From a virus (lineage: Duplodnaviria > Caudoviricetes): DNA of 64,000 nucleotides. Below are positions 45,492 to 59,788 of the stretch, in pieces. Numbering within the stretch: the stretch's first letter is position 1; every line of letters begins with the position of its first letter. The notes beneath the pieces were generated by a model. It was not told the DNA's origin and made no database searches. It worked only from the letters and a program-made list of their open reading frames with translations. The stretch lies in the IMG/VR virus record IMGVR_UViG_3300022752_000014. One strand, 5' to 3'. Both the position numbers and the translations under genes were made by a program.

Positions 45492-48400
45492 ATGGCAAAT
45501 CCAATAATTAAAATCAAACGGTCGGCTGTTGCCGGTAAAATTCCAACAACGACAAGTTTGGAACTTGGGGAATTAGCCATCAATACCTATGACGGTAAAG
45601 TTTATATTGAACAAGATCAGGGTGCTGTTGGTGTAGGAACCACAATTATCATCATCAACCCCTGGTCTGTTGGTTTAGGAAGCACAGCATATAACACTTA
45701 CTTTACTGCTGGATCTGTTGGTATTGGAACCACAAATCCAACAGAACCCGGTTTATCAGTTCTTGGTAAAGTACAAATATATCAAGACAGCAGTTCTAAT
45801 AATAGAATAATTTTTAGAGGGCAACCAGGTTCCTCTTATCGTTGGAATATTGATAATTATAGTTCCTCTAATCAGTTTAGAATTTTTAGGGAAGATGATG
45901 CAACTTCTGCAAATGGTTCTGTTGCAGTAAGTATCAGTACCACTGGCACTGTAACTGCTACAAAATTTTCTGGTGATGGTTCTTTACTCACAGGTATTAC
46001 TGCCTCTGGTAGTGGTGTTGTAGTTCAAAATCAAGGGTCTAATGTTGGTACTGCTGGTACATTAAACTTCAGTACAAATTTAAATGCAACATTTGCTTCT
46101 GGCACTGCAACCATATCTCTTTCTAATAATCCTTCAATCAGTGGTATACTTACAGCAGACCAAGTTTATACCTCAAATAATGGCAATGGAACAAACATAA
46201 GAATTGGTGATGATGCTTGGTTAGGTGATATTAACGTAGCAAATACAACTCGTCTCTCCGGTGCTCAAGATGGCACTAAAGGATTTATAGTTTTTGGTAA
46301 TTCGGATGCTGTTGCTTTAGGTAGAACTGGAACTGGACCATTATATTATGGTGGAAATTTCGAGGTTGCTGGAGTTATAACTGCATCAAGTTTTAATGGC
46401 AATGCTTCAAGTGCGACTTATGCATCAACAGCAGGCGTGGCAACCTATGCCACTAATGCTGGTGTAGCAACAGCACTTCAAAACGTAAGAACTTTTGAAA
46501 TTACTGGAGACGTTGTTGCCTCTGCAATTAGTTTTGATGGAACTGGAAATGTATCTTTAGCAGCAACCATTCAACCAAATAGTGTTGGACTTGGAACAGA
46601 TACAACTGGTGATTATGTAACCAATATCACAGGAACATCAAACCAAATTACAGTTACGAGTGGAACTGGAGAAGGTTCAACACCAACTTTAAGTATTCCA
46701 AATCAATTCACTGCTCCTCAAGATGTAGAAATTACTAGAGATCTACAGGTTAATCGTAACTTAAATGTAAATGGTAATATTACGATTGGTGGTACATCTG
46801 CCACAATTTTTTCATCAACACTAAACATCTATGATCCAGATATTGTTCTTGGTTATAGAACAGATGCCTTTGGTAATGATGTTTCCACCGATAATACAGC
46901 CAATCATGGTGGTATTGCAATTGCTTCAACCGAAGGTAATCCATTAGTTCAATTATTCATTGCTGGTATTGAAACAAACCCTGCCACATATAAAAAAATT
47001 ATGTGGTTTAAGGCAGGAGAATTTGCTGGACTTGGAACTGATGCTTGGTTAAGTAACTATGCTGTTGGTATTGGATCAACTCAATTTCCAATAGGAACAA
47101 GACTTGCCGCTGGTTCGGTTCAATTTACTCAAAATGATTTAGCAGTCGTAAGAAATGTCAACTCATCTGGCGTCTCCACGCTAGGAACAGTTCAAATATC
47201 ATCTGGCATTATCACTGCCACAAGTGGTGTTGTAACTTATTATGGTGATGGTTCTAAACTCTCTAATATTATCAGTGGAGTATCTATTTCCACTGATACT
47301 ACCAACCAAGCACAACTTATACCATATGTAGTATCAACTGGATCTACAACTGGATTTGGTGTTAGTGCATCAGGACTTGTATTTAATCCCTCAACTGATA
47401 ATCTTGGCATAAACACTTCAACTCCAACACAAACTCTACACGTTCAAGGTAATGCAAGAATTACTGGTGGAATTTATGATTCTAACAATAATGTAGGAAC
47501 TGCTGGATCTGTTCTTTCTTCTACTGGTACTGGATTATCTTGGATTCCTGCTGCTGCTGGCGGTGGGGGTGCAGGAACTACATTCTTTGGTGCTAAGTTT
47601 GATACTAATATTGATAGTACTCTTTATATTCAACCAACAGGAACTTTAGATATTGTAGGTGTTGGTACAACAACGACACAAATTACAACATTCCCTTCTG
47701 GATCTAGTGAATATATTATCCATTCCATTCACGTCACAAATATATCTAATGGTGATGCTGAAGTTACAGGTGGATTCTTAATAAACTCAAGAGCAGTTCC
47801 CGCATCAATTTCAGTCAGCATCGGTCAAAGTGGAAGAGCAGGTTTTAATACAGTCACAGTGGGTAGTGCGAGTAGTATTGTTCCAGGTATGGCTGTAATT
47901 GGTACTGGTAATATTGGTGAAACGACTGGTATTGGATCCACAGCAGGATTCCAGTTCAATACTTATGTGACTAGTGTAGATGGAACTGTAGTGTCATTCA
48001 GTAAACCTCTAAGTGGTCGTATTGTCGGTGTTGCAACATTCATACCAACTTCTAAATTTGCATCCAGACTTCCAATTCCTGTTGGATCTGCAGTTGAACT
48101 TTTAAAACAACCGATGATTCTTAATGCATTAGACAGTATTGTACTACAATCTACTGGTGCAGGTACTGGTGTTGGTTCAACATCAACCGCAGCAATTTCA
48201 CAAACATCAGGTTCTAATCTACTAACAGTAACTGCAGGTGCTGCGATTACAAACTTTATTGCAGCAGGTCAATTAATTCAGGGAACAGGTTCTAATACTG
48301 GTATTCAAACCAATACTTTTGTTGGTGTTGGTTATACTCCTGGACAATTAACAGTTCCTATGACAAGACCAGCAACATCCACATTAGCATCACAAATTCT

Positions 48401-48863
48401 TTCATTCACAGAAGTTGTGACTCCACAAGATGGTGCCTTGCAAGCAACAATCGTATATCAAACAACAGCAGATACTTCATTCCAAGGTGGTACTGGTACT
48501 GTTGTTGGTATTGTAACTCTGGCATCACAAGCAACATCACCAACTTTAGGTATTACATCTACTGTTCCATTATGCTATTATGGAACTGGAAATACCTATC
48601 CATCAGTCATTCAATCCATTCGAGTTACAAATATTTCTGATGGTAGCATCTATCCTGGTGGCGATTATCCCGTATCCGTAGGTATTGGTAATAGTGATAC
48701 AATATTCTCTTGGTTGGCATATAATATGGTAATTCCAAAGAACTCTTCAATTGAACTTTGTGAAGCACCGAAGAGATTAGGTATCGGTCAATCAATTTTT
48801 GCAGTTGCAAGCACTCCATACACAATTGAAATACAAATCGCAGGAAGACAAAAGTTAGTATAA
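45492..48863 (+). CDS. Tail fibre protein (1123 aa)
   Basis: IKIKRSAVAGKIP...L.LGELAINTYDGKVY anchor, fibre repeats, and two C-terminal SI.VTNI...IP..S.VEL domains. Confidence 0.8.
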   Translation: MANPIIKIKRSAVAGKIPTTTSLELGELAINTYDGKVYIEQDQGAVGVGTTIIIINPWSVGLGSTAYNTYFTAGSVGIGTTNPTEPGLSVLGKVQIYQDSSSNNRIIFRGQPGSSYRWNIDNYSSSNQFRIFREDDATSANGSVAVSISTTGTVTATKFSGDGSLLTGITASGSGVVVQNQGSNVGTAGTLNFSTNLNATFASGTATISLSNNPSISGILTADQVYTSNNGNGTNIRIGDDAWLGDINVANTTRLSGAQDGTKGFIVFGNSDAVALGRTGTGPLYYGGNFEVAGVITASSFNGNASSATYASTAGVATYATNAGVATALQNVRTFEITGDVVASAISFDGTGNVSLAATIQPNSVGLGTDTTGDYVTNITGTSNQITVTSGTGEGSTPTLSIPNQFTAPQDVEITRDLQVNRNLNVNGNITIGGTSATIFSSTLNIYDPDIVLGYRTDAFGNDVSTDNTANHGGIAIASTEGNPLVQLFIAGIETNPATYKKIMWFKAGEFAGLGTDAWLSNYAVGIGSTQFPIGTRLAAGSVQFTQNDLAVVRNVNSSGVSTLGTVQISSGIITATSGVVTYYGDGSKLSNIISGVSISTDTTNQAQLIPYVVSTGSTTGFGVSASGLVFNPSTDNLGINTSTPTQTLHVQGNARITGGIYDSNNNVGTAGSVLSSTGTGLSWIPAAAGGGGAGTTFFGAKFDTNIDSTLYIQPTGTLDIVGVGTTTTQITTFPSGSSEYIIHSIHVTNISNGDAEVTGGFLINSRAVPASISVSIGQSGRAGFNTVTVGSASSIVPGMAVIGTGNIGETTGIGSTAGFQFNTYVTSVDGTVVSFSKPLSGRIVGVATFIPTSKFASRLPIPVGSAVELLKQPMILNALDSIVLQSTGAGTGVGSTSTAAISQTSGSNLLTVTAGAAITNFIAAGQLIQGTGSNTGIQTNTFVGVGYTPGQLTVPMTRPATSTLASQILSFTEVVTPQDGALQATIVYQTTADTSFQGGTGTVVGIVTLASQATSPTLGITSTVPLCYYGTGNTYPSVIQSIRVTNISDGSIYPGGDYPVSVGIGNSDTIFSWLAYNMVIPKNSSIELCEAPKRLGIGQSIFAVASTPYTIEIQIAGRQKLV

Positions 48864-48866
48864 TTT

Positions 48867-49520
48867 ATGAGTATTCTTATATCATTACCTTGTTATGGTG
48901 GATTGGTCAATGAAAAAACCACCACATCACTTTTTAATCTTGGTAAACTTTTAGTTCGTAATAACATAGACCACGGTATCATGACCGTTGCAAATGAGTC
49001 ACTGATTACTCACGGACGGTCAAGAATTGCAAACTTCTTTATGAATAATACTGAGTTTGAGTATCTGTTTTGTTTGGATGCTGATGTTGCTTTTCAACCA
49101 GAAGATATGTTGAAGTTATATTCATATCAAAAACCAATTGTGTCTGCATCCTATCCTATGAAGACACTCCCAATTCGACATTGTTATGAACTTTATAATC
49201 CAGTAAAGTTATGTGGAAATCTTGTGAAGATTGGTGGAATTGGTATGGGATTTGTATTAATTCATCGAAGTGTGTTTGAGAAACTAAATAAGCATTATAG
49301 TGAATTAAAATATTTTCCAGGATTGAATAATTCAAACTATCCAATTACTGAAAAAGAATATCATAATTCATATCACTACTTTGCCGAAATGAATAAGGAA
49401 GGAAAATATTTGGGAGAAGATATGAGTTTCTTTCATCGTGTGAGTGATATTGGTTATGATGTTTGGATGGATACAAGTATAGAATTACAGCACATCGGTT
49501 CTCACGTATTCGGTAAGTAA
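48867..49520 (+). CDS. GT-A (family 2-like) glycosyltransferase
   Basis: LPCYGG, SLI..GRS.I, YLFCLDAD (DxD), GMGFVLIHRSVFE, GEDMSF, W.D..I.L.HIG. Confidence 0.75.
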   Translation: MSILISLPCYGGLVNEKTTTSLFNLGKLLVRNNIDHGIMTVANESLITHGRSRIANFFMNNTEFEYLFCLDADVAFQPEDMLKLYSYQKPIVSASYPMKTLPIRHCYELYNPVKLCGNLVKIGGIGMGFVLIHRSVFEKLNKHYSELKYFPGLNNSNYPITEKEYHNSYHYFAEMNKEGKYLGEDMSFFHRVSDIGYDVWMDTSIELQHIGSHVFGK

Positions 49521-49521
49521 A

Positions 49522-51417
49522 ATGGCAATTGGAGTATTTGGTCTACAAGTTGCTTATAAACTGAAGAGACTTGAGGTAATGAGTACTGCCAATACTCACG
49601 GTTGGTTTGGTGGAGGATTTTTAAATCCAGGAGGATTGACATCAGTAGATCGTGTAGATTTCTCTAATGATTCAATAACGGCATCACTAAGAGGTCCATT
49701 AGTAGCAGGAAGATATAGATTATCAGCAACAGGAAACTCTAACTATGGTTGGTTTGGCGGTGGAGGAACAACGAACCCATATACTACAACTTCAACAATA
49801 CAACGTATAGATTTTTCAAATGATTCATCAACTGCATCACCAAGAGGTCCAATAGGTAGTTCATTCAAAAAAGCACTTGCAGCAACAGGAAACTCTAACT
49901 ATGGATGGTTTGGTGGAGGTGATGTTAGTGGATCAACAGTGGACCGCATAGATTTTTCAAATGATTCCGGAACAACATCATTGAGAGGTCCATTAAATTT
50001 TCCTTCAGGAAATACTGCATTAGCAGCAACAGGAAATTCTAATTATGGTTGGTTTGGTGGTGGTTTTAGTGTTGGAGCTTGGGTATCAGCAGTAAATCGT
50101 ATAGATTTTTCAAATGATTTACCAATAGCATCAGTTAGAAGTCCAATATTTGCATCAAGATACTTATCAGCAACAGGAAACTCTAACTATGGTTGGTTTG
50201 CTGTTGGCCAAGTTCCTGGACCAGCATTTACTTCAAGAGTAGACCGCATAGATTTCTCTAATGATTCTGCTCAGTCATCAACAAGAGGTCCCTTAACTTC
50301 TGCAACTGGCTATTACTCGGCAACAGCAAACTCTAATTATGGTTGGTTTGGTGGTGGGCCCGCAACAATAGACCGTATAAATTTTGCAAATGATTCTGTA
50401 ACATCATCATTAAGAGGTCGATTAACAGTAGGTAGAACTTCTGGAGCAGCAACATCAGGACAAGCAAAAGGACCATCAATCAAACTAGGAAAAACTCTTG
50501 GATATGGTTGGATTGGTGGAAATGGATATTATGTTCCTCCATTTACTAAATCAACGTTTTCAACAGTTGACCGCATAGATTTCTCTAATGATTCATCAAC
50601 AGCATCACCAAGAGGTCTATTAAGTTCAGCAAAAGAGAGCCTAGCAGCAGCAGGAAACTCTAACTATGGTTGGTTTGGTGGTGGTGCTCCTGGACCATTA
50701 TCAACAGTAGACCGTATAGATTTCTCTAATGATTCTGCAACAGCATCAGTTAGAGGACCATTAAGTTTAACAAGATCTAATGAAGCAGCAACAGGAAACT
50801 CTAACTATGGTTGGTTTGGTGCAGGTGTTTCCCCTTCACAAACAGTAGACCGTATAGATTTTTCAAATGATTCAGCAACAGCATCACCAAGAGGAAATCT
50901 AATAATTGCTACAAATCAACTTGGAGCAACAGGAAATGCCAGTTACGGTTGGTTTGGTGGCGGGCAAGCACCTGGACCTCCTTATATTGGATACAGTTAT
51001 GTTCAACGTATAGATTTCTCTAATGATTTGCCAACAGCATCACCAAGAGGTTTATTAAGTGCATCTGGATATATGCTGGCAGCAACGGGGAATTCTAATT
51101 ATGGATGGTTTGGTTCTCGTTCTCGTGATGGTGGAGCTACTGCAATAACAACAATAGACCGTATCAATTTTTCGAATGATTCTGTAACAGCATCACCAAG
51201 AGGTCTTCTGAATATTGGAAGAAGAAGTGCTTCTGCAACAGGGAACTCTAACTATGGTTGGTGGTTTGGTGGTATTTTAAATCCAGGACAACTTTCCGCA
51301 TACTCTTCAGTGGAGCGTATAGATTTTTCAAATGATTCGGCAACAGCATCAACAAGAGGTAACTTAACCGCAATTAGAAACAATTCAGCAGCAACCTCCA
51401 ACACACCAATAGGATAA
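49522..51417 (+). CDS. Kelch-like double beta-propeller protein 1 (12 repeats)
   Basis: 12 copies of ATGNSNYGWFGGG-x(n)-STVDRIDFSNDS.TAS.RG.L, arranged 6 + linker + 6; ends AATSNTPIG. Confidence 0.8.
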   Translation: MAIGVFGLQVAYKLKRLEVMSTANTHGWFGGGFLNPGGLTSVDRVDFSNDSITASLRGPLVAGRYRLSATGNSNYGWFGGGGTTNPYTTTSTIQRIDFSNDSSTASPRGPIGSSFKKALAATGNSNYGWFGGGDVSGSTVDRIDFSNDSGTTSLRGPLNFPSGNTALAATGNSNYGWFGGGFSVGAWVSAVNRIDFSNDLPIASVRSPIFASRYLSATGNSNYGWFAVGQVPGPAFTSRVDRIDFSNDSAQSSTRGPLTSATGYYSATANSNYGWFGGGPATIDRINFANDSVTSSLRGRLTVGRTSGAATSGQAKGPSIKLGKTLGYGWIGGNGYYVPPFTKSTFSTVDRIDFSNDSSTASPRGLLSSAKESLAAAGNSNYGWFGGGAPGPLSTVDRIDFSNDSATASVRGPLSLTRSNEAATGNSNYGWFGAGVSPSQTVDRIDFSNDSATASPRGNLIIATNQLGATGNASYGWFGGGQAPGPPYIGYSYVQRIDFSNDLPTASPRGLLSASGYMLAATGNSNYGWFGSRSRDGGATAITTIDRINFSNDSVTASPRGLLNIGRRSASATGNSNYGWWFGGILNPGQLSAYSSVERIDFSNDSATASTRGNLTAIRNNSAATSNTPIG

Positions 51418-51420
51418 ATA
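51414..51420 (+). promoter_or_regulatory. Late promoter overlapping propeller-1 stop codon
   Basis: ATAAATA contains the TAA stop; same arrangement at 58726-58732. Confidence 0.55.
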
Positions 51421-51441
51421 TCTCAAACTACATCATTTCTT

Positions 51442-52053
51442 ATGAGGCAAAACATTATTATTGTTGATAATTTTTATGAGAATCCATATGAAGTTCGTCA
51501 GTATGCACTAAATCTGGAGTATCCACAACCACAAGACGGTTATACATATCCAGGTAGAAACTCAAAAGGAACTTTTTATAATCAAGAGATTCACGATAAG
51601 TTTGAACTTCTTTTAGGAAGACGTTTGATTCCAGCACAAGAAGGAAATCACGGCGACTTTAGATTATCATTAGAAACAGATACATTTCAACAAGACATTC
51701 ATATTGATCCAATCTGGGACTGGGGTTGCGTTCTTTATATGAATCTACCACATCAGTGTATTGATGAGGCAGGAACATCTTTCTGGAAACATAAAAAACT
51801 GGGATGGGAAAGATGCCCCGAACAGCACGAAGCAGGTTGGTTTGGTTATACTTCTTATGAAGAAATTAGAGAGGGTATTGTTTATGGCGATGGACTTGAT
51901 CGTTCCAAGTGGGAGCGATACTGTTTGGCAAATATGCGATATAATAGAGCAGTCATCTTTGATCCAAAACTCTGGCACTCACACGGAGCAAACTTTGGAG
52001 ATTGTTTAGAAAACGGTAGATTAGTTCAATTGTTCTTTTTTAGTAATGCATAA
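51442..52053 (+). CDS. 2OG-Fe(II) oxygenase-like protein
   Basis: IIVDNFY..P..VR.YAL, YPG.NS, IHID (HxD), VLYMN, GTSFW, YNR.VIFD..LWHS, RLVQLFFF. Confidence 0.75.
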   Translation: MRQNIIIVDNFYENPYEVRQYALNLEYPQPQDGYTYPGRNSKGTFYNQEIHDKFELLLGRRLIPAQEGNHGDFRLSLETDTFQQDIHIDPIWDWGCVLYMNLPHQCIDEAGTSFWKHKKLGWERCPEQHEAGWFGYTSYEEIREGIVYGDGLDRSKWERYCLANMRYNRAVIFDPKLWHSHGANFGDCLENGRLVQLFFFSNA

Positions 52054-52876
52054 GACTTATTTTTTTGAAAGTGGATTACCTCGTTCTGGTTCTACATTAC
52101 TTTCTGCAATTCTAAATCAAAATCCAGACCTTCACTGTGGTGCTATATCTCCTGTGTTGGAGATTATGTATTATACAGAGCAATACTTTGAGGGGTCGGA
52201 GCAGGCACTTGCATATCCAAAACCAGCACAGCATCATAAGATTATTTCAAGTGTGATTGATAATTATTATAGTGATAGAGAAGAAAAATATATTGTAGAT
52301 AAATGCCGTGCTTGGCCAAATAATGTTGACAGAATACAAGAATACATCACAAAGACACCAAAGATTTTGTGTCCCGTAAGAGATGTATTAGAGATTCTTG
52401 CATCTTTTATTCAAATGATTCATCGCAATTCAAATCAATTATCATTTGTTGATAAAGCATTAAGAGATTATGGATATGAGGTGAATGATGATAATCGTTG
52501 TGATTACCTTATGTGCCCTGAAGGGATTGTAGACCAGTCCTTATATGCCTTCGGAGAGGGATTTAGAAAGGGTTGTGAAAAGTATATGCATATGATTGAG
52601 TATAATGACTTGGTGAATCGTCCAGAAGAAACGATGCATAAAGTTTATCAGTTTCTTGAGATTCCCGAATATCAACACGACTTTGGGAATGTAAGTCATA
52701 AATACAGGGAGAGAGATAATGAAGTTTACGGATTGAGTGATATGCACGAAGTTCGTAAGCAAGTCAAAAGAACTTCTAAAAGACCCGAAGAAGTTTTGAG
52801 TGATTATGTATTGAATAAGTATTCTGGTATGGAATTTTGGAGAAAGGCAAAACAACCAATCAGTTTGTTTATCTAA
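52046..52876 (+). CDS. PAPS-dependent sulfotransferase
   Basis: GLPRSGSTLL..ILNQNP (5'-PSB loop), DKCRAW, VRD..EI.ASF, IEY.DLV..PE..M.K.Y.FL. Confidence 0.88.
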   Translation: MHKTYFFESGLPRSGSTLLSAILNQNPDLHCGAISPVLEIMYYTEQYFEGSEQALAYPKPAQHHKIISSVIDNYYSDREEKYIVDKCRAWPNNVDRIQEYITKTPKILCPVRDVLEILASFIQMIHRNSNQLSFVDKALRDYGYEVNDDNRCDYLMCPEGIVDQSLYAFGEGFRKGCEKYMHMIEYNDLVNRPEETMHKVYQFLEIPEYQHDFGNVSHKYRERDNEVYGLSDMHEVRKQVKRTSKRPEEVLSDYVLNKYSGMEFWRKAKQPISLFI

Positions 52877-54742
52877 ATGACAATCAATAATAACAATATA
52901 TTTGGAGCATTTACTCTTAATGATGCAAGAGGGTCACGACTGACTGGTGATTGGTTGAATAAAGAGTTTGTTGCGAATTATGGTTGGTTTGGTGGTGGTA
53001 CTCCAGGACCAGTATCAACAGTAGACCGTATAGATTTTTCGAATGATACTGGGACAATATCACCTAGAGGTTCTTTGAGTACTGCAAGATGGTTGACAGC
53101 AGCAACAGGAAACTCTAATTATGGTTGGTTTGGGGGAGGTTCTCAACCAGCAACAACATTTTCAAAAGTAGACCGAATAGATTTTTCTAATGATTCTTCA
53201 ACAACATCAGTAAGAGGTCCATTAAGTTCAGAAAGAAATGGTATGGGAGCAACAGGAAACTCTAACTATGGTTGGTTTGGTGGTGGTTTTCAATTATCAA
53301 CAGTAGAACGTATCGATTTTTCTAATGATTCTTCAACAGCATCACAAAGAGGTCCATTAAGTTTAGCAAGATATAGATTCGGAGGAGCAACAGGAAACTC
53401 CAACTATGGTTGGTTTGGTGGAGGTACATTTGCACTATCAGTATATTCAAGAGTAGACCGCATAGATTTTTCTAATGATGTATCAACGGCATCACCAAGA
53501 GGTTCGTTAAGTTTAACAAGATATGGTATAGGAGCAACAGGAAACTCCAACTATGGTTGGTTTGGTGGTGGTTATTCGGGAACTATTAGTTCAATACACT
53601 ATTCCATAGTAGACCGTATAGATTTTTCTAATGATTCAGTAAGAGCATCCGTTAGAGGTCCATTAAGTTCAACAAGATATCAAGCAGCAGCAACAGGAAA
53701 CTCTAATTATGGTTGGTGGGGTGGAGGTGGTAGATTTCCTTCTGTTCCTTCTCCTGCATTATCAACAGTAGACCGTATAGATTTTGCAAATGATTCTGTA
53801 TCAGCACCTTCAAGAAATCTATTAACTTCTGCAAGATATGGTCATGCAGCAACATCAGGAGTTCTCAATATTCGCAGACAAAAAGCAGGGAATTATGGTT
53901 GGTTTGGTGGTGGACAAACACCGGCAATACCAGGAATAGTTTCAACAGTAGATCGTGTAGATTTTACAAATGATTTAGCAACAGCATCAGTTAGAGGTTC
54001 TTTAAATTTAAGATCTGCAGCAGCAGCAACAGGAAACTCTAATTATGGTTGGTTTGGGGGAGGCACCCCTGGTCCACTATCAACAGTAGACCGTATAGAT
54101 TTCTCAAATGATTCTGCAACAGCATCACCAAGAGGTCCATTAACCTTAGCAAGATCTATTTTAGCAGCAACAGGAAACTCTAATTATGGATGGTTTGGTG
54201 GGGGTTCTGGACCAGTATCAACAGTAGACCGTATAGATTTCTCAAATGATTCTGCAACAGCATCACCAAGAGGACCAATAATTGCTACAAGATATTTGGC
54301 AGCAACAGGAAACTCTAACTATGGTTGGTTTGGTGGCGGTTCTGCAGGAGCTTTAGTAAATCGTATAGATTTCTCAAATGATTCTGCAACAGCATCACCA
54401 AGAGGTCCATTAAGTTTATCAAGAGATAGATTAGCAGCAACAGGAAACTCTAACTATGGTTGGTTTGGTGGCGGTTCTCCAGCAAGATCAACAGTAGACC
54501 GTATAGATTTTTCAAATGATAACATAACAGCATCACTAAGAGGATCATTAACTGGAACGAGATATAATGCTGGAGCAACAGGAAACTCTAATTATGGTTG
54601 GTTTGGGGGAGGCACCCCTGGTCCATTATCAACAACAGATCGAATTGCATTTTCAAATGACTTAGTGACGGCATCGCCAAGAGGGTTATTAAGTCTAGCA
54701 AGATTTTTTCCAGTAGCAACCTCCAACACACCAATGGGATAA
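52877..54742 (+). CDS. Kelch-like double beta-propeller protein 2 (12 repeats)
   Basis: Same repeat, 6+6, linker AATSGVLNIRRQKAG; ends VATSNTPMG. Confidence 0.8.
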   Translation: MTINNNNIFGAFTLNDARGSRLTGDWLNKEFVANYGWFGGGTPGPVSTVDRIDFSNDTGTISPRGSLSTARWLTAATGNSNYGWFGGGSQPATTFSKVDRIDFSNDSSTTSVRGPLSSERNGMGATGNSNYGWFGGGFQLSTVERIDFSNDSSTASQRGPLSLARYRFGGATGNSNYGWFGGGTFALSVYSRVDRIDFSNDVSTASPRGSLSLTRYGIGATGNSNYGWFGGGYSGTISSIHYSIVDRIDFSNDSVRASVRGPLSSTRYQAAATGNSNYGWWGGGGRFPSVPSPALSTVDRIDFANDSVSAPSRNLLTSARYGHAATSGVLNIRRQKAGNYGWFGGGQTPAIPGIVSTVDRVDFTNDLATASVRGSLNLRSAAAATGNSNYGWFGGGTPGPLSTVDRIDFSNDSATASPRGPLTLARSILAATGNSNYGWFGGGSGPVSTVDRIDFSNDSATASPRGPIIATRYLAATGNSNYGWFGGGSAGALVNRIDFSNDSATASPRGPLSLSRDRLAATGNSNYGWFGGGSPARSTVDRIDFSNDNITASLRGSLTGTRYNAGATGNSNYGWFGGGTPGPLSTTDRIAFSNDLVTASPRGLLSLARFFPVATSNTPMG

Positions 54743-54745
54743 AAT

Positions 54746-56479
54746 ATGAAATCAGGAGCAAGTGAAAGTTCTTATTTTTTTCTTGAAGAATATTATAAGT
54801 TTCCAGAAAACATTATAGTTTCTCATTTACCACAAGAACTTCAACAATCAAATAAACCAGTCAAAGTATTGTGGTCGCAACATTCTTATGACCAACCACA
54901 TTATCTCAATTTTGATTTTTCAATTTGTGATTTAATTGTTTCTCCATCCAACTGGTGCAGAGAGCAGTTCATCAAGTATCATCATATTCCAGAAGATAAA
55001 ATCGTCACAATTCCAACAGGAGTATCAAAGCAATTTACATACTCCAACAAAAAATCAAAGACATTCATTTATACTTCCATACCATACAAAGGTCTTGAAG
55101 TATTGGCACAAATCATTCCTCATATTCCTGAGGCAACATTCAAAATTTTCTCTGCGATGAATCTTTATGATATTCAAGAAGACCCATACACAGAACTTTA
55201 TGAATATCTCAAATCACTTCCAAATGTAATCTATTCACCAGCAGTAGACCAAGCAGAACTCATAGAGCACTTACAAGATGCAGCATTCTTCATTCATCCA
55301 AACATCTGGGAAGAAACATTTTGTGTTTCACTTGCAGAAGCAATGTCTTGTGGATGCTTTCCAATTCTGACTGATATTGGAGCACTACCCGAAGTATCCA
55401 ATGAGATTGCGAATATTGTTTCAATGGAAGGCACAAGAACCACCAGAGGATACGAAGTTACAGACAACTTCCTAAATAACTTTATAGATGCCTGTAAATC
55501 TGCTCTATATTTCTTTGATAATGACAGGCAATATTACGATCAAATTTCACAATCAGTTTCATATTATGCTACTGAAACTTATGATTGGAAAAAAATTGCA
55601 AACGTTTGGAAACAAACATTAGAACCATTTAGTAAAAACACTATGACTGAAAATTGTAATCAATTGCAAGTTGTTTCTCCAGAAGAAGCAGTAAGTAACG
55701 AAGAATATTTACAACAAGCATTTCAGGAAGTGCTTCGCTGGGAAGAGGCAGATAAAGAACTTGCACAAGGAAGAACCAATTTCCAGATTGAAAAGTTCTT
55801 TCTGTTAGAGCAATACACAGTTCCTGCAGCATTCCAGGCAGCAATTAAGAATCGTCGCATTCTTGCTGAAGGTTATATGCAGAAACTGATTGAGATGAAA
55901 GAGAAGGTTCGTGAGTTTGAGTATCGTTGGAAAGGTAAGAATACTGATGAACCTGTAGAGTGGCATACATCAGGACCTAATGGTGGTTCTACAAAACTCT
56001 ACTGGCACGATTTGGATTCACTATCAATTCAAAACTACTTGAAATCTTGTGAATTAGAAATTCGTGACCGTATTCAGCAAATGAATTTCTTTGATAAGAT
56101 GATTAATAAACTAATTGAACTCAACGGCGGTAAGACTGTCACTCGTGAGCAGTTTGAAGCAGAGGACCACGTTTATTGGGAACGTCGTTTTGCAGAGCAA
56201 TCTCTGGATGAAATGGTAAGTTCTAAGACTGGTATTAGTATTGGTAATCTTCACTCCATGAGAAGAGGAACTGCGCCAACATTAATCAGTGAAGACACAA
56301 ACCGTATTAAGAATGGTTATGGTTCTCTTGCCGATGCAATTAATGACCCAGAAAGATTCTTGAATACTCTGCAAGAAAAAGTTCTTCGTGGTATTGAAGA
56401 AGTGACAAATACTGACCTTGGTTTGCTTGCTCCTGGAACTGAACAACATCAACAACTTTTAGAATCCAGAAATCCATAA
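54746..56479 (+). CDS. GT-B (family 4-like) glycosyltransferase fused to a helical domain of unknown function
   Basis: IYTSIPYKGL, A.FFIHP.IWEETFCVSLAEAMSCGC.PI.TD.GALPE (GT4 E-x7-E); about 280-aa helical C-terminal region after an in-frame ATG at 55643. Confidence 0.8.
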   Translation: MKSGASESSYFFLEEYYKFPENIIVSHLPQELQQSNKPVKVLWSQHSYDQPHYLNFDFSICDLIVSPSNWCREQFIKYHHIPEDKIVTIPTGVSKQFTYSNKKSKTFIYTSIPYKGLEVLAQIIPHIPEATFKIFSAMNLYDIQEDPYTELYEYLKSLPNVIYSPAVDQAELIEHLQDAAFFIHPNIWEETFCVSLAEAMSCGCFPILTDIGALPEVSNEIANIVSMEGTRTTRGYEVTDNFLNNFIDACKSALYFFDNDRQYYDQISQSVSYYATETYDWKKIANVWKQTLEPFSKNTMTENCNQLQVVSPEEAVSNEEYLQQAFQEVLRWEEADKELAQGRTNFQIEKFFLLEQYTVPAAFQAAIKNRRILAEGYMQKLIEMKEKVREFEYRWKGKNTDEPVEWHTSGPNGGSTKLYWHDLDSLSIQNYLKSCELEIRDRIQQMNFFDKMINKLIELNGGKTVTREQFEAEDHVYWERRFAEQSLDEMVSSKTGISIGNLHSMRRGTAPTLISEDTNRIKNGYGSLADAINDPERFLNTLQEKVLRGIEEVTNTDLGLLAPGTEQHQQLLESRNP

Positions 56480-56491
56480 AGGAGACAATAA

Positions 56492-58729
56492 ATGCCAGCA
56501 GGAGACGTATTTGGACTTGATGGGATTTTTCTAAACAAATCAAATCCTATTACGGTTTCTTCTATAGGAATCAATTCCACTGCTTCTGGTGCTGGCATTG
56601 CTGTTACTGGTGGTATTTTAGATACAGTTGCGGGTATTGCGACTCTTACTCTTTCAAGTGCTGCTGGTCTTTCTACAACACCTTTTTATACTGGTGCGAA
56701 GATTGCAGTTGCAGGTCTTGGTGATACTACTGGTGTAGCATATACTGGATATAATGGAGTTTTTGTAGTCACAGGATTTGCAGGAACTACAACAGTTTCT
56801 TATGCAACTACTGGTTATGTTGGCAGTGTAACTGCTGGCATTACCACAACTGGTTTGGTAATGTTAGTTACTGATACACAAGTCACCAATACCACTTGGA
56901 GTAATGCTCAAACTCACGGTTGGTTTGGTGGTGGACAATCTCCATCAGGTGTATCAAGAATAGACCGTATAGATTTCTCTAATGATTCTATAACAGCATC
57001 TGTTAGGGGACCATTAAGTTCCGTAAGATATAATTTGGGAGCAACAGGAAACTCTAATTATGGTTGGTTTGGTGGTGGTTTTATATTATCAACAGTAGGT
57101 CGTATAGATTTCTCTAATGATTCTGCAACAACATCAGTTAGAGGACCATTAAGTTTAGCAAGAATATCTCCAACAGCAACAGGAAACTCTAATTATGGAT
57201 GGTTTGGTGGTGGTAATTTAGGGTCTCCAGCTGCTTTTGCTGCAGTATCAACAGTAGACCGTATAGATTTCTCCAATGATTCCTCAACAACATCAGCAAG
57301 AGGTCCATTAAGTCAATCAAAACAAGCAACGGCAGCAGCAGCAAACTCTAACTATGGTTGGTTTGGTGGTGGTACTATCCCTGGGTCGCCATTAACAATA
57401 TATTCAACAGTAGACCGTATAGATTTCTCCAATGATTCTAGAACAGCATCACCAAGAGGACCATTAAGTTCCACAAGAAGAAATTTTTCAGCAACAGGAA
57501 ACTCTAATTATGGTTGGTTTAGCGGTAGTAGTATATCAACAGTAGACCGTATAGATTTTTCAAATGATTCCACAACAACATCAGTTAGAGGTCCATTAAG
57601 TTTAGCAAGAACAGGTTCGGCATCAACAGGAAACTCTAACTATGGTTGGTGGGGAGGTAATTATATTTTTCCGGCAACATATAACTCGACAGTGGACCGT
57701 ATAGATTTTTCCAATGATTCTGTAACAGCATCAGTTAGAGGACCATTAAGTGCAGCAAGAGGATATTTAGCAGCAACATCAGGACAGGCAAGATCTTCAA
57801 GCACTCGTCTACAAAAAGCAGGGAATTATGGTTGGTTTGGTGGTGGTATAAACCAAGTTCCATTTCCAATAGTATGGGTATCAAGAGTAGACCGTATTGA
57901 TTTCTCAAATGATTCTATAACAGCATCTCCAAGAGGCGTACTTTCTTCATCACTTGCGGAAAGTGCAGCAACAGGAAACTCTAACTATGGTTGGTTTGGT
58001 GGTGGTTCAACTCCAACATCAGTATCAAGAGTAGACCGTATAGATTTCTCGAATGATTCTTCCACGGCATCAGTTAGAGGTCCATTAAGTTTAGCAAGAT
58101 TTGATTTAGCAGCAACAGGAAACTCTAATTATGGTTGGTTTGGTGGTGGTTTTATTCCTAGTTCAACGAGACTATCAAGAGTAGACCGTATAAATTTTGC
58201 AAATGATTCCGCAACAGCATCAGTTAGAGGTCCATTAAGTTTAGAAAGGTTTCATTTAGCAGCAACAGGAAACTCTAATTATGGTTGGTTTGGTGGTGGT
58301 TATAATCCTGCTCTTGGTGGATATCCAAATAACATTATATCAACAGTAGACCGTATTGATTTCTCTAATGATTCTTCCACGGCATCACCAAGAGGTCCAT
58401 TATCTTCTAGTAGGTATGGTTTAGCTGCAACAGGAAACTCTAACTATGGATGGTTTGGTGGATATTCTGCTTCATCTAGAATAGACCGTATTGATTTCTC
58501 GAATGATTCTACAACAGCATCACCAAGAGGTGTATTATCTTCAACTAGAAGATATGTGGCAGCAACAGGAAACTCTAACTATGGTTGGTGGGGTGGTGGT
58601 AATCCTGCACCTTATTCTACGGTAGATCGTATTAATTTTTCCAATGATACTGGAACAGCATCTCCAAGAGGAGTATTGGGTTTAGCAAGACCTTATATAG
58701 CAGCAACCTCCAACACACCAATAGGATAA
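56492..58729 (+). CDS. Kelch-like double beta-propeller protein 3 (12 repeats) with N-terminal fibre-like domain
   Basis: About 140-aa N-terminal beta domain, then 6+6 repeats, linker AATSGQARSSSTRLQKAG; ends AATSNTPIG. Confidence 0.8.
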   Translation: MPAGDVFGLDGIFLNKSNPITVSSIGINSTASGAGIAVTGGILDTVAGIATLTLSSAAGLSTTPFYTGAKIAVAGLGDTTGVAYTGYNGVFVVTGFAGTTTVSYATTGYVGSVTAGITTTGLVMLVTDTQVTNTTWSNAQTHGWFGGGQSPSGVSRIDRIDFSNDSITASVRGPLSSVRYNLGATGNSNYGWFGGGFILSTVGRIDFSNDSATTSVRGPLSLARISPTATGNSNYGWFGGGNLGSPAAFAAVSTVDRIDFSNDSSTTSARGPLSQSKQATAAAANSNYGWFGGGTIPGSPLTIYSTVDRIDFSNDSRTASPRGPLSSTRRNFSATGNSNYGWFSGSSISTVDRIDFSNDSTTTSVRGPLSLARTGSASTGNSNYGWWGGNYIFPATYNSTVDRIDFSNDSVTASVRGPLSAARGYLAATSGQARSSSTRLQKAGNYGWFGGGINQVPFPIVWVSRVDRIDFSNDSITASPRGVLSSSLAESAATGNSNYGWFGGGSTPTSVSRVDRIDFSNDSSTASVRGPLSLARFDLAATGNSNYGWFGGGFIPSSTRLSRVDRINFANDSATASVRGPLSLERFHLAATGNSNYGWFGGGYNPALGGYPNNIISTVDRIDFSNDSSTASPRGPLSSSRYGLAATGNSNYGWFGGYSASSRIDRIDFSNDSTTASPRGVLSSTRRYVAATGNSNYGWWGGGNPAPYSTVDRINFSNDTGTASPRGVLGLARPYIAATSNTPIG

Positions 58730-58753
58730 ATACCTCCAACTACATTATTAGTA

Positions 58754-59404
58754 ATGAATTTATTATCCAAAGTTTTGATTGCACCAAAAGTCATCAGTCA
58801 AGAAGGTATTGATGCACTGGTTCATCATATGAAAACTTCAAAAACAGAAGACCTTTCAGTATTCGACCCAGATAAATCCAATCAGACAAGATCTACTGAA
58901 TGGATTACCGATAAGAAAACAAGAGATACCCAGATTGCTCCAATTGAACCTGTATTTCCACAGGTCAATGAATTGATGCATCATATTGTAAAGCAAGTCA
59001 TCAATCCTTTTTATCAGTTTGAAGTGGATAGTAGTGAAGTTCCACAACTACTTTGTTATGGTGTAGGAGGTCATTACCAACCTCATATTGATGGTGAAGG
59101 TATATGGACTGCACCAGACCAAACACAAATTTGGAGAAAGACAGTAGACCGTGATTTGTCGATGGTCTTATATCTCAACAATGAGTTTGGAGGTGGTGAT
59201 TTTGTATTTCCAGACCTTCATATTCGTGTTCGTCCTGAGCCTGGTCTTTTAGTATGCTTTCCTTCTAACAGATATTATAGACACGGAGTAGAACCAGTCA
59301 CCAAAGGAAACAGATATTCTATGGTGACTTGGATGACTGTAAAAGGATTTGAGAGTATGGAAACTCAATCTAATAATCTCAAATCTAAATATGGTGTATG
59401 CTAA
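58754..59404 (+). CDS. Prolyl-4-hydroxylase-like 2OG-Fe(II) oxygenase
   Basis: QLLCY..GGHYQPHID, R.LS.VLYLN.EF.GG.F.F, FPSN..Y.HGV.PVTKG.RYS.VTW. Confidence 0.9.
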   Translation: MNLLSKVLIAPKVISQEGIDALVHHMKTSKTEDLSVFDPDKSNQTRSTEWITDKKTRDTQIAPIEPVFPQVNELMHHIVKQVINPFYQFEVDSSEVPQLLCYGVGGHYQPHIDGEGIWTAPDQTQIWRKTVDRDLSMVLYLNNEFGGGDFVFPDLHIRVRPEPGLLVCFPSNRYYRHGVEPVTKGNRYSMVTWMTVKGFESMETQSNNLKSKYGVC

Positions 59405-59410
59405 AGAAAA

Positions 59411-59788
59411 ATGATTACTTATACTTGGAGTATTTCTAGATTAGACTGTGCTCCATCAGAAAATGGATTATCCAATGTAGTTAAAATGATTTATTGGGGA
59501 CTTACAGGAACAGATGAGAATGGAATAACTGCATCTTTCAATAGCTCTTACCCTCTTCCATCACCAAGTCCAGAAGAATTTACTGATTATTCAACTCTAA
59601 CCAAAGAAACTGTGATTCGTTGGTTGGAAAGTAATCTTATTGGTGTTGAAAATTTACAAACAGCACTTGCAAATAAGATTGCGAGTAAGTACAATCCTCC
59701 TATTATTCCATTACCTCTTCCTTGGGCAGTGGTAGAAGAACCTATAGTAACTGAAGAACCAGCAACTAAAACACTTGACGACCAATAA
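59411..59788 (+). CDS. Hypothetical fibre-associated protein
   Basis: TYTW.I..L......VV..I.W.L.G.D.NG...F.DY..LT...V..WLE; similar to the 34102 ORF. Confidence 0.6.
   Translation: MITYTWSISRLDCAPSENGLSNVVKMIYWGLTGTDENGITASFNSSYPLPSPSPEEFTDYSTLTKETVIRWLESNLIGVENLQTALANKIASKYNPPIIPLPLPWAVVEEPIVTEEPATKTLDDQ

Follow-up and report, generated by a model that had tools for sequence, protein, structure and literature searches.

The window analysed here is a 64,000-nt stretch of DNA from an uncultured freshwater cyanophage (IMG/VR record IMGVR_UViG_3300022752_000014). At positions 48867-59788 of its plus strand, on which all features described below lie, three fast-evolving double-propeller genes are interleaved with five well-conserved tailoring enzymes, within the module of a T4-like cyanomyovirus that encodes its baseplate and tail fibres. 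The gene order is GT-A-like protein, Kelch 1, DUF6445 protein, sulfotransferase, Kelch 2, GT-B fusion, Kelch 3, prolyl-hydroxylase (P4H)-like oxygenase and DUF7936 protein. An earlier note on this DNA had listed the same open reading frames in this order, and its coordinates match exactly; the tight packing directly behind a tail-fibre gene that it reported was also seen, the gaps from the fibre gene to DUF7936 being 3, 1, 24, -8, 0, 3, 12, 24 and 6 nt. The adjoining fibre gene, the first of the unit, encodes a fibre or baseplate-wedge-like protein of 1123 aa (45492-48863; phrog_1469, E 1e-32) that is 64-76% identical to its syntenic counterparts. The last gene encodes the small DUF7936 protein (59411-59788; PF25590, E 2e-22), which was found in most syntenic loci. 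An additional oxygenase gene lies between the upstream fibre genes.

The unit is bounded by two terminator-like hairpins of the intrinsic type. One (45240-45262; 8-bp stem with 5 GC pairs, T run) closes the preceding fibre gene, and the other (59863-59884; 9-bp stem, T run) marks the downstream boundary. The late-promoter motifs claimed in the note were recovered in part: the canonical sequence TATAAATA was absent from the island, whereas the relaxed core ATAAATA occurs at 45433 (45433-45439, 52 nt upstream of the 1123-aa fibre gene), 51414 and 58726, and across the window 13 of its 20 copies lie no more than 80 nt upstream of start codons (P about 4e-12). Two of these positions fall in a duplicated junction, consisting of GATAAATA and a 24-nt spacer; the conserved first copy (51414-51441) overlaps the Kelch 1 stop codon and precedes the DUF6445 gene, and its near-duplicate (58726-58753) precedes the P4H-like gene. 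Late co-expression of the unit, also proposed earlier, is suggested by the motifs, the tight packing and the two flanking terminators, and genes spaced by 0 to -8 nt point to coupled translation. Relatives of the enzyme and Kelch genes are present in contigs of four metatranscriptome studies; this is weak evidence of expression, because RNA libraries can contain DNA.

Fold and selection of the Kelch proteins

The three long open reading frames, Kelch 1 (49522-51417, 631 aa), Kelch 2 (52877-54742, 621 aa) and Kelch 3 (56492-58729, 745 aa), all match phrog_19111, with E values from 1e-95 (Kelch 1) to 3e-111. Each contains exactly 12 repeats of about 47 aa apiece, preceded in Kelch 3 by an N-terminal domain of ~140 aa; none of the Pfam Kelch models scored above cut-off. 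In the AF2 model of Kelch 2 (pLDDT 71.8) the repeats form two six-blade propellers, and a Foldseek search matched the Kelch domains of Keap1 and KLHL12 with TM scores by target of 0.85-0.89. A single 12-blade ring was rejected, as a low-confidence linker is found at residues 330-337 and the two halves match six-blade Kelch domains. The "12-blade" propellers of the earlier note are instead two tandem six-blade Kelch propellers (6+6) per protein.

The description of these propellers as hypervariable holds. Positional orthologues of the Kelch proteins are 61-72% identical across syntenic contigs, as against 88-99% for the enzymes, and dN/dS, which was 0.06-0.11 for the enzymes and 0.31-0.34 for the Kelch framework, rose to 1.3-2.1 in two Kelch loop segments, values to be read with the caution that these loops are length-variable and hard to align, that pN is near 0.6 and that exchange between paralogues is possible. 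Signs of such exchange are seen, since orthologues are no closer to each other than paralogues are. The two segments are the 2-3 and 4-1 loops, which lie on one propeller face and are under diversifying selection. The usual ligand-binding face of a Kelch domain is built from these loops; we take the variable segments to correspond, from what is known of the Kelch fold, to the B-C and D-A loops of Keap1, which form its ligand-binding face. On the opposite face, the 1-2 and 3-4 loops (GNSN, FSNDSxTAS) hardly vary and contain many Ser, Thr, Asn and Asp residues, a conservation that could reflect folding or metal binding rather than acceptor sites.

The ends of the proteins are conserved as well. 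Their N-termini are short, paralogue-specific and kept across genomes, and this end is probably the one that docks to the virion; in Kelch 3 the N-terminal domain has some likeness to adaptor, baseplate and tail domains of phages, matches that serve as leads only. The closing tail AATSNTP is likewise conserved. The acidic-Tyr motif ([DE]Y) of the type preferred by TPSTs was not found in the Kelch proteins.

The enzymes and their co-inheritance with the Kelch genes

The GT-A-like putative glycosyltransferase (48867-49520, 217 aa; phrog_1574, E 1e-27) is the weakest identity call in the island. Its match to the glycosyltransferase family phrog_34859 (E 4e-8) is weak, as is that to the GT-A protein A197 of STIV (E 0.024); it carries a DAD motif at residues 71-73, and GT2/Anp1 appears in a minority of the members of its Atlas neighbours. 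The DUF6445 protein (51442-52053, 203 aa; PF20043, E 3e-13, 50.6 bits), a Syn9-gp52-like 2OG/Fe(II) oxygenase-like protein, has the motif H87-x-D89...H179/H181, and its nearest named Atlas clusters are 2OG-FeII_Oxy_3. Overlapping it by 8 nt is the PAPS-type sulfotransferase (52046-52876, 276 aa; Sulfotransfer_3, PF13469, E 8e-16), with the motifs GLPRSGST and VRD...S. Judged by its family profile, which matched TPST1 (E 3e-12) and TPST2 (E 1e-7) in the PDB, this enzyme is nearest to the protein-tyrosine sulfotransferases; the catalytic Glu of TPST is not conserved in the alignment. The 577-aa fusion begins with a GT4-type GT-B half (54746-55642; PF00534 and PF13692, E about 5e-11), whose domain spans residues ~25-295 with an EX7E motif near residues 190-198. 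Its C-terminal half is a helical domain (55643-56479) that belongs to no known family in Pfam, was modelled by AF2 at a pLDDT of 93 and gave as its only structural match a non-significant prefoldin-like core. The last enzyme, a 2OG/Fe(II) oxygenase (58754-59404, 216 aa; 2OG-FeII_Oxy_3, PF13640, 63 bits), has the motif H111-x-D113...H177 and, its sequence relatives in the PDB being P3H1, collagen P4H alpha-2 and a B. anthracis P4H, is nearest to the peptidyl-prolyl hydroxylases. Catalytic motifs are intact in the enzymes. No signal peptide or membrane segment was detected in any product of the unit, and the fibres contain no collagen-type X-Pro-Gly repeats.

The linkage of enzymes and propellers recurs in IMG/VR: of the loci whose sulfotransferase is 47% or more identical, all 16 contain Kelch genes together with nearly every enzyme that their span allows, and the 12 that reach both ends all hold the whole cassette. 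Independent occurrence, which the earlier note had named as the finding that would count against it, is thus not the pattern for these enzyme subfamilies. For the sulfotransferase, the DUF6445 protein, the P4H-like enzyme and the helical domain alike, the nearest phage homologues in GenBank come from the few records that bear Kelch genes. The order DUF6445, sulfotransferase, Kelch is common to freshwater loci L002, L006 and L011-L024, and recurs in L003 (a divergent 239-kb genome), in L025 and in the marine Kyanoviridae genome AG-345-L05, whose Kelch proteins are about 25-36% identical. In S-SKS1, the one cultured isolate identified as a carrier, the sulfotransferase, the P4H-like gene and the helical domain are retained amid Kelch genes. 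The helical domain, a separate gene in L003, L025 and S-SKS1, travels with Kelch genes and forms 102 representative clusters. The enzyme superfamilies are still widespread in cyanophages without this Kelch family, and therefore the link is one of subfamilies and not of families. Distant members adjoin other types of adhesin in the absence of the phrog_19111 family; the neighbours of distant sulfotransferases are Gly-rich adhesins, an S74 fibre and 2OG oxygenases, and at one distant locus an APS kinase adjoins the sulfotransferase. Taken together, these results establish the gene content, fold, selection pattern, co-inheritance and intact catalytic motifs of the island.

Interpretation and rival explanations

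The best explanation, to which we give a probability of about 0.45, is that the Kelch proteins serve in host recognition on the virion, after being tailored by the co-expressed enzymes in the cytoplasm. The three would act in this T4-like cyanomyovirus as accessory modules for receptor binding or adhesion, sharing one late transcription unit, with partly coupled translation, with five soluble enzymes that may modify the propellers, and perhaps the neighbouring fibre, before assembly. From their sequences, the enzymes would carry out hydroxylation, glycosylation and sulfation, probably with the phage's own host-binding proteins as targets. Candidates for hydroxylation by the two 2OG oxygenases are side chains of, e.g., Pro, Asn or Asp; sugars may be attached by the GT-A-like and GT4 enzymes, and the TPST-like enzyme may use PAPS to sulfate Tyr, a hydroxyl or a sugar. 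The helical domain on the GT4 enzyme could be a targeting or folding helper. Virion location, substrate identity, reaction order and modified residues are what we infer here. Decoration of fibres or propellers, already put forward in the earlier note, thus stays conjectural, but it gains support because two of the enzymes resemble protein-modifying TPSTs and prolyl hydroxylases, and because the products have no signal peptide or membrane segment. The explanation as a whole is favoured by the position among the tail genes, the six-blade Kelch fold, the selection pattern, the co-inheritance and, by analogy, the S-SRM01 cassette, the distant sulfotransferase loci and the operons predicted by Iyer et al. 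(2010), and more weakly by the Kelch 3 N-terminal domain and the metatranscriptome contigs; as a further analogy, the virion proteome of S-SCSM2R includes a TolB-type propeller protein and a 2OG prolyl-hydroxylase-like protein (PMC12801897). Counting against it are the missing acidic-Tyr motif, the unconserved TPST Glu, the lack of X-Pro-Gly repeats in the fibres, the other possible causes of the polar-loop conservation, the occurrence of the enzyme superfamilies in cyanophages without these Kelch genes and the uncertainty of the loop dN/dS; glycans linked to lipids or nucleotides on the membrane's inner face are also possible substrates of soluble glycosyltransferases and sulfotransferases.

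An unlikely but serious alternative, raised in the earlier note as well, is that the Kelch proteins are adhesins while the enzymes act elsewhere, for instance on a sulfated, hydroxylated glycan of the host envelope that they would build or alter so as to mask receptors, exclude superinfecting phages or aid release, and lie in the fibre operon only through shared late timing. GT-A-like, GT4 and PAPS sulfotransferases are typical glycan builders, a nucleotide-sugar epimerase is found in the analogous S-SRM01 cassette, and the APS kinase beside a distant sulfotransferase fits the same scheme. However, the closest solved relatives of two of the enzymes are protein-directed and the products lack a membrane anchor or signal peptide, while timing alone poorly explains the gene-by-gene interleaving, the translational coupling and a micro-synteny kept down to about 25% Kelch identity. 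It is improbable that the Kelch proteins are non-structural and, like eukaryotic Kelch substrate adaptors, use their variable faces to bind fast-evolving host proteins (defence or surface-biogenesis factors), blocking them or presenting them to the conserved enzymes. The fold, the diversifying loops on the canonical substrate-binding face, the pairing of variable binders with conserved enzymes and a possible scaffold in the helical domain would suit such a role; the position behind a fibre gene in a late fibre module, the conserved, paralogue-specific N-terminal ends, the likeness of the Kelch 3 N-terminal domain to virion adaptor and baseplate domains, and the presence of propeller proteins in cyanomyovirus virions (PMC12801897) argue against it.

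Cyanophage dioxygenase arrays have been explained in print as modulating DNA repair or 2OG and nitrogen metabolism (PMC3037559), as reprogramming the metabolism of the host (PMC9602691) and by secondary metabolites (PMC2938197), views that would make the enzymes auxiliary metabolic or secondary-metabolite genes, acting in 2OG turnover or in the tailoring of a small peptide or metabolite and unrelated to the Kelch proteins. We consider this very improbable: the unit has no peptide-synthesis genes, halogenases or precursor peptide, the enzyme subfamilies are strictly co-inherited with the Kelch genes, and a further oxygenase lies between the upstream fibre genes. There is also little likelihood that the interleaving is functionally meaningless, a recombination-prone region having gathered mobile enzyme genes and duplicated adhesin genes. 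Variable hot spots do occur near structural genes in cyanomyovirus genomes (PMC3037559), the Kelch paralogues bear signs of exchange and the junction with its spacer is duplicated; yet order and content are kept from freshwater to marine genomes while Kelch identity falls to about 25%, the enzymes are under strong purifying selection, gene spacings of 0 to -8 nt are a sign of coupled translation, and RCC1, an unrelated propeller family, occupies the same type of cassette.

Comparison with known systems

Tailoring of Kelch proteins by their neighbouring enzymes would have a partial precedent in mycobacteriophages, whose virions are reportedly glycosylated by phage-encoded glycosyltransferases (attributed to Freeman et al., Cell Host Microbe, 2023). 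As would be the case here, those enzymes are encoded by the phage and act in the cytoplasm on its own virion proteins ahead of assembly; unlike the proposal for the island, the targets are capsid and tail-tube proteins, glycosylation is the only modification, and there are no oxygenases, sulfotransferase, propellers or interleaved order. With Keap1 and KLHL12 the island proteins share the six-blade Kelch fold at about 18% sequence identity, but they have no BTB/BACK domain, comprise two or three tandem propellers and belong to a phage structural module. The phage sulfotransferase has the PAPS-binding motifs of human TPST1 and TPST2 (5'-PSB, PRSG[ST]T; 3'-PB, VRD...S), but it is cytoplasmic whereas they reside in the Golgi lumen, their catalytic Glu is unconserved in the alignment, and the Kelch proteins lack an acidic-Tyr acceptor motif.

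The cassette, of whose interleaving the earlier note knew no description, is not wholly new, since its hydroxylate-then-sulfate logic had been predicted and superfamily relatives adjoin other adhesins. Iyer, Abhiman, de Souza and Aravind (2010; PMC2938197) predicted bacterial operons in which co-encoded tail-collar or Gly-rich collagen-like proteins would be hydroxylated by beta-hydroxylase/PhyH-type 2OG dioxygenases and then sulfated by a sulfotransferase, the latter with or without PAPS synthetase. As in the island, the surface proteins encoded alongside the 2OG dioxygenases and the sulfotransferase are non-enzymatic and phage-fibre-like; in contrast, those operons are bacterial, computationally predicted, directed at tail-collar or collagen-like substrates and devoid of glycosyltransferases, helical domain and Kelch propellers. 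The Syn9-gp52-like dioxygenases, relatives of DUF6445, were defined as a family in the same study, which attributed cyanophage dioxygenase arrays to secondary metabolism and not to virion proteins (PMC2938197). A similar arrangement is found in Synechococcus phage S-SRM01 (NC_070963.1), in gp335-gp349, a cassette that its genome paper (PMC8557907) does not mention. It also lies behind the distal tail-fibre gene, and three RCC1 beta-propellers are interleaved with a 2OG oxygenase, a glycosyltransferase and a sulfotransferase 36% identical to that of the island; it differs in its TPR and epimerase genes and in its propellers, which are single, seven-bladed and unrelated in sequence to the island Kelch proteins.

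Gene order and transcription signals

The ORF map agreed to the base with the gene list and coordinates that the earlier note had read from the sequence. The island opens with a 217-aa GT-A-like protein (48867-49520; phrog_1574, weakly matching a glycosyltransferase PHROG) and continues with Kelch 1 (49522-51417), a DUF6445 protein (51442-52053), a Sulfotransfer_3 protein (52046-52876), Kelch 2 (52877-54742), a 577-aa GT4-type GT-B fusion whose GT domain occupies residues ~25-295 (54746-56479), Kelch 3 (56492-58729), a 2OG-FeII_Oxy_3 (P4H-like) protein (58754-59404) and a DUF7936 protein (59411-59788); the DUF6445, Sulfotransfer_3, 2OG-FeII_Oxy_3 and DUF7936 assignments come from family scans. 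The three Kelch genes are phrog_19111 paralogues with no assigned function (E 1e-95 to 3e-111). The ORF immediately 5' of the island encodes 1123 aa and matches a baseplate-wedge/fibre PHROG, and the intergenic gaps across the unit are 3, 1, 24, -8, 0, 3, 12, 24 and 6 nt. The tight packing (-8 to 24 nt) directly behind a tail-fibre gene, which had also been proposed from the sequence, was thus confirmed.

The remainder of the window is a T4-like myovirus baseplate and tail-fibre module, whose hub protein shares ~50% identity with the hub proteins of Synechococcus phages S-SM2 and Bellamy. The cassette DNA is present in freshwater and lake metagenomes from several studies, and the source virus is related to the cyanomyoviruses and comes from fresh water. 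When the whole island was searched by megablast against GenBank phages, no match was returned. A 203-aa ORF at 20580-21191 (+ strand), within the structural module and just 5' of a 1954-aa fibre gene, matches the Mom protein family (PF25680, E 1e-22) and is a candidate DNA-modification gene, oddly placed. At 62099-63663 (+), a thymidylate-synthase-like ORF (phrog_85) is followed by an adjoining GIY-YIG/HNH-type homing endonuclease ORF (phrog_314). An additional 2OG-FeII_Oxy_3 oxygenase (34569-35189, +; E 5e-16) is flanked by a 724-aa fibre-like protein rich in Gly/Ser and by an S74-chaperone fibre, so that the interleaving of oxygenases and adhesins reaches upstream of the island.

The unit, from the 1123-aa fibre gene (45492..48863) to the DUF7936 gene, is bounded by terminator-like hairpins at 45240-45262 and 59863-59884. 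Late-promoter motifs had been ascribed to its genes; this did not hold for the canonical motif, as the unit contains no TATAAATA and the window has as many copies of it as chance would give. A sigma-70 promoter scan likewise gave no excess over shuffles. The relaxed core of this T4-type late-promoter motif, ATAAATA, occurs 20 times on the + strand of the window, 18 of these in non-coding DNA. Of the 20 copies, 13 precede a start by at most 80 nt, where chance would give 5.8% (P about 4e-12), and the unit holds three, before the fibre gene, the DUF6445 gene and the P4H-like gene. The Kelch-to-oxygenase junctions at 51414-51441 and 58726-58753 are near-duplicates (TSNTPIG stop, GATAAATA, 24-nt spacer), which suggests a duplicated regulatory unit or an exchange between Kelch paralogues. 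Relatives of the enzyme and Kelch genes were found in contigs from four metatranscriptome studies; such contigs report presence in RNA libraries only, not timing, strand or level, and uncovered bins mean nothing.

Fold and variation of the Kelch proteins

Each Kelch protein consists of exactly 12 repeats of ~47 aa, with a longer linker between repeats 6 and 7 and the repeat consensus ATGNSNYGWFGGG-(loop)-STVDRIDFSNDSxTASxRGPLS-(loop). YGWFGGG, RIDF and RG.L are nearly invariant over all 36 repeats. Their length lies in the range of Kelch repeats (44-56 aa), and they have the Gly-Gly doublet behind a hydrophobic strand, the spaced aromatics and the conserved Arg of such repeats. An AlphaFold2 model of Kelch 2, built on a 46-sequence alignment (pLDDT 71.8), is all-beta with four strands per repeat, and its pLDDT drops below 50 at residues 330-337, in the linker. 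Each half of the model was aligned by Foldseek with Keap1, KLHL12 and the designed SAKe6 over ~300 columns (TM by target 0.80-0.89), and its four-stranded blades are predicted to close a six-blade ring, as in Kelch domains. The "12-blade" propeller of the earlier note had therefore to be revised: the 6+6 layout, the distinct low-confidence linker and the half-length structural matches point to two tandem six-blade Kelch propellers. A single 12-blade ring was rejected because the best structural matches are single six-blade domains, each spanning half the model.

A Pfam scan of the three proteins returned no Kelch model above threshold, and PF24681 scored 23.5 bits against one homologue, below its cut-off of 50; phrog_19111 is thus a distinct, uncurated Kelch-type family. 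A word-indexed search gave more than 900 relatives, and none of the remaining phage Kelch proteins in the viral structure library has been characterised. Homologues of ~950-980 aa in other genomes contain ~18 repeats, which would be enough for three propellers.

The N-terminal 20-30 residues of the Kelch proteins are paralogue-specific and highly conserved between genomes, as would be expected of a constant docking end. Kelch 3 has an additional domain at its N-terminus, which resembles phage adaptor, baseplate and tail domains (leads only). In the marine Kyanoviridae genome AG-345-L05 (L009), a Kelch slot is occupied by a 916-aa protein with a Laminin_G_3 lectin-like domain (18742-21492) that has the N-terminal motif of the Kelch paralogues (MADTRGTW...), suggesting that binding domains are swappable onto one docking end. 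S-SKS1 (host Synechococcus WH7803) is a cultured carrier of the family; its Kelch region (NC_020851.1, 201.8-208.0 kb and 1-1.2 kb) spans the ends of the linear record and reads as several pieces, with in-frame stops and unannotated gaps. This fragmentation could be sequencing or assembly error in the repeats, or real decay, and it matters since S-SKS1 is the only cultured carrier found.

Across the 36 repeats the framework is almost invariant (entropy <1 bit), and two variable segments per repeat, after GGG and after RGPL, reach 2-3.6 bits. We take these segments to be the 2-3 (B-C) and 4-1 (D-A) loops, by standard Kelch topology rather than model coordinates; in Keap1 the B-C and D-A loops form the ligand-binding face. 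Compared with their counterparts on syntenic contigs, the enzymes of the window are 88-99% identical, whereas positional Kelch orthologues are only 61-72% identical, no closer than paralogues inside one genome. Median dN/dS values (Nei-Gojobori, 11-14 non-redundant loci) were 0.06-0.11 for the enzymes and 0.31-0.34 for the Kelch framework; those for Kelch loop 1 (1.6-2.1) and loop 2 (1.3-1.8) are to be read with variable lengths, hard alignment, pN near 0.6 and likely paralogue exchange in mind. The loops were the only place where pN exceeded pS. The description of the propellers as hypervariable was therefore well founded, and the island is real and conserved, with a striking split selection regime.

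The Kelch variation is distributed over 72 loops in three genes and does not look like the single variable repeat of a diversity-generating retroelement; no reverse transcriptase was found among the window ORFs scanned. The N-terminus of an 865-aa fibre-like protein (42621-45218, +) weakly matches Mtd_N (E 1e-5, just below cut-off), the N-terminal domain of the major tropism determinant of these retroelements. In metatranscriptome contigs over window positions 49600-57500, many joints jump ahead or back from one paralogous Kelch repeat to another, which could reflect chimeric assembly of the repeats or natural recombination.

The enzymes and their inheritance with the propellers

The catalytic motifs of the P4H-like, DUF6445, sulfotransferase, GT-A-like and GT4 proteins are intact, and no signal peptide or membrane segment was found in any cassette product. 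In the sulfotransferase, GLPRSGST at residues 10-17 (5'-PSB) and VRD...S at residues 111-120 (3'-PB) are invariant in the family alignment. When a profile of this family (13 sequences) was compared with solved proteins, TPST1 (E 3e-12) and TPST2 (E 1e-7) were closest, ahead of CurM-type and small-molecule sulfotransferases. The catalytic Glu base that follows the 5'-PSB in TPST is not conserved, TPST1 'GEE' being aligned with 'spiS' by HMMER. Acidic-Tyr acceptor sites of the TPST type were rejected for the Kelch proteins, all three of which have zero [DE]Y motifs; their 4-1 loop has a recurrent R-Y in place of the acidic-Tyr. The window contains no PAPS-synthesis gene. On a distant myovirus contig (L027, 2192-3753), the gene next after the sulfotransferase encodes an APS-kinase-domain protein (E 7e-17), which would allow that phage to supply itself in part with the sulfate donor PAPS.

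The P4H-like enzyme matches PF13640 with 63 bits (cut-off 27) and has H111-x-D113...H177; its solved relatives in the PDB are all peptidyl-prolyl hydroxylases (P3H1, P4H alpha-2 and B. anthracis P4H). A collagen-like X-Pro-Gly substrate was rejected for it, as the G-X-Y runs of the fibres are poly-Gly/Ser/Ala with almost no Pro, and recurrent Pro occurs only in the Kelch motif S-P-R-G-P-L. The DUF6445 protein (PF20043, 50.6 bits against a cut-off of 24; H87-x-D89...H179/H181) is 28% identical to Syn9 gp52 and its nearest named neighbours are 2OG-FeII_Oxy_3 clusters; a sequence search of solved proteins gave no meaningful relative, with a single hit at E 0.66. The GT4 domain matches Glycos_transf_1 (42.6 bits, cut-off 26.4) and has E-x7-E near residues 190-198, and a sequence search of solved proteins with the GT-B half found no meaningful relative. 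The GT-A-like protein has a DAD motif at residues 71-73, no Pfam match, and leads in the Atlas, with STIV A197 as a weak match (E 0.024); this putative assignment is the weakest of the enzyme calls.

The C-terminal 278 residues of the GT fusion belong to a separate family of 102 representative clusters, most of them stand-alone proteins. This domain is modelled as a confident helical fold (pLDDT 93); a Pfam scan of 44 family members gave nothing consistent, and a fold search of the PDB and AFDB clusters gave no significant match. Its helix, beta-hairpin, helix core is weakly like prefoldin beta (E about 0.4, a lead only). Complex prediction of the helical domain with the C-terminal Kelch propeller scored 0.02, a value that speaks neither for binding nor against it.

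Two other contigs, one of 197 kb from ENA and one of 104 kb from JGI, show the same order of DUF6445, sulfotransferase, Kelch, GT fusion, Kelch and P4H-like. In a divergent genome of 239 kb the order of DUF6445, sulfotransferase, Kelch and P4H-like is retained; its GT and helical domains are encoded by two genes of their own that come earlier, between the first two Kelch genes. The sulfotransferase was found at 27 IMG/VR loci. Where it is at least 47% identical, Kelch genes are present together with nearly every enzyme that the span allows (16/16 loci), and the whole cassette is there in all 12 of these loci that reach both ends. In AG-345-L05, whose Kelch proteins are 25-36% identical to those of the window, the order is Kelch, DUF6445, sulfotransferase, Kelch, GT-A-like, GT fusion, DUF6445-like, LamG protein, P4H-like, sulfotransferase, and in S-SKS1 a sulfotransferase, a P4H-like enzyme, a further 2OG oxygenase and the helical domain are encoded among the Kelch genes. 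For the sulfotransferase, the DUF6445 protein, the helical domain and the P4H-like enzyme, the best GenBank phage homologues are all in Kelch-bearing records, with a sharp drop in identity beyond them. Distant sulfotransferases (34-40% identical) have as neighbours Gly-rich proteins of adhesin type, an S74 fibre, several 2OG oxygenases and, in one case, an APS kinase. These enzyme subfamilies thus travel with Kelch genes and do not show the independent occurrence that the earlier note had named as refuting its reading; at the superfamily level the link is broader and not exclusive. A functional link between enzymes and propellers is well supported by comparative genomics.

Possible function and relation to known systems

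The best-supported reading, to which we assign a probability of about 0.45, is that the Kelch proteins are virion-borne host-recognition proteins tailored by the co-expressed enzymes. In each, one end would be constant and serve for docking, one face would bind and diversify, and another, polar face would stay invariant, and the soluble enzymes would tailor the propellers, and perhaps the adjacent fibre too, before assembly; substrate, modified residues and reaction order are those that we infer. This reading draws on the position in the fibre module, the selection pattern, the co-inheritance over deep divergence, the likeness of the two best-typed enzymes to protein-directed ones, and the analogy with phage S-SRM01. 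An analogy with S-SCSM2R helps too: its purified virions contained both a propeller protein of the TolB type and one like 2OG prolyl hydroxylases (PMC12801897), and the N-terminal leads of Kelch 3 also bear on a virion location. Counted against it are the Kelch proteins lacking acidic-Tyr, the fibres lacking a collagen-type substrate and the missing TPST catalytic Glu. A more specific proposal, which we regard as possible but doubtful, is that the near-invariant loops GNSN and FSNDSxTAS, together with S-P-R-G-P-L, form an invariant polar acceptor patch on each of the 36 blades, which the cassette enzymes would hydroxylate, glycosylate and sulfate. The patches would lie on the blade face opposite the hypervariable loops, so that the phage would display heavily decorated, sulfated glyco-propellers with a fast-evolving binding surface on the other face, and the prefoldin-like helical domain would serve specifically to help fold or present the propellers. 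If true, this would be the first sulfated phage virion protein, and many cyanophage genes for 2OG oxygenases and sulfotransferases that are so far unexplained and taken for auxiliary metabolic genes would gain a first function.

Other explanations start from the same genes. The enzymes may remodel the host envelope, which is unlikely in our view; the Kelch proteins may be intracellular adaptors, a role that we hold to be improbable beside their conserved N-termini. An accidental interleaving is equally improbable. The lowest probability, a very small one, falls to metabolic or secondary-metabolite genes, although this is how the literature sees such enzymes: cyanophage oxygenases are read as metabolic or DNA-repair genes, their function untested (PMC3037559, PMC9602691), and Iyer et al. 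(2010, PMC2938197), who established the family of Syn9-gp52-like dioxygenases, put the dioxygenase arrays of cyanophages down to secondary metabolism. A cyanomyovirus can encode as many as two dozen 2OG/Fe(II) oxygenases, along with sulfotransferases and glycosyltransferases, the functions of which have "not been specifically investigated" (PMC9602691). To the metabolic reading the cassette offers a concrete alternative, in which some such enzymes may mature host-recognition proteins, and its candidate substrates have a two-face design, with one constant face and one under diversifying selection. Were maturation of the Kelch proteins the right reading, the counting of viral "auxiliary metabolic genes" in aquatic metagenomes would change, and a large uncharacterised propeller-type binding family would be identified that probably influences which freshwater and marine picocyanobacteria are infected.

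For mycobacteriophages, glycosylation of virion proteins by phage-encoded enzymes was reportedly established by Freeman et al. in 2023; hydroxylation and sulfation would join this known phage-particle chemistry if the maturation reading is right. Bacterial operons that combine beta-hydroxylase/PhyH dioxygenases with sulfotransferases have been predicted to hydroxylate and then sulfate co-encoded tail-collar/Gly-rich proteins (Iyer et al. 2010, PMC2938197). The island resembles them in co-encoding 2OG dioxygenases and a sulfotransferase with a non-enzymatic fibre-like or Gly-rich protein, but differs in having no tail-collar/collagen Pfam match and none of the PAPS synthetases that such operons often encode, an APS kinase being seen only in the distant L027 contig. 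In S-SRM01, genes for three genuine RCC1 propellers alternate with those for a 2OG oxygenase, a sulfotransferase, a GT and an epimerase behind the distal fibre gene, a cassette that the genome paper of this phage does not mention. A literature search on cyanophage, sulfotransferase and tail fibre, or on phage, Kelch and receptor-binding protein, found nothing relevant. Full novelty, as the earlier note suggested for the interleaving, is not supported, since the hydroxylate-then-sulfate logic had already been predicted by Iyer et al. for bacterial operons. Dedicated tailoring enzymes co-encoded with adhesins are, then, already known or predicted; new here are the candidate substrate, an uncharacterised tandem-Kelch-propeller family, and the larger enzyme set of two oxygenases, two glycosyltransferases, a TPST-like sulfotransferase and a helical domain of no known family.
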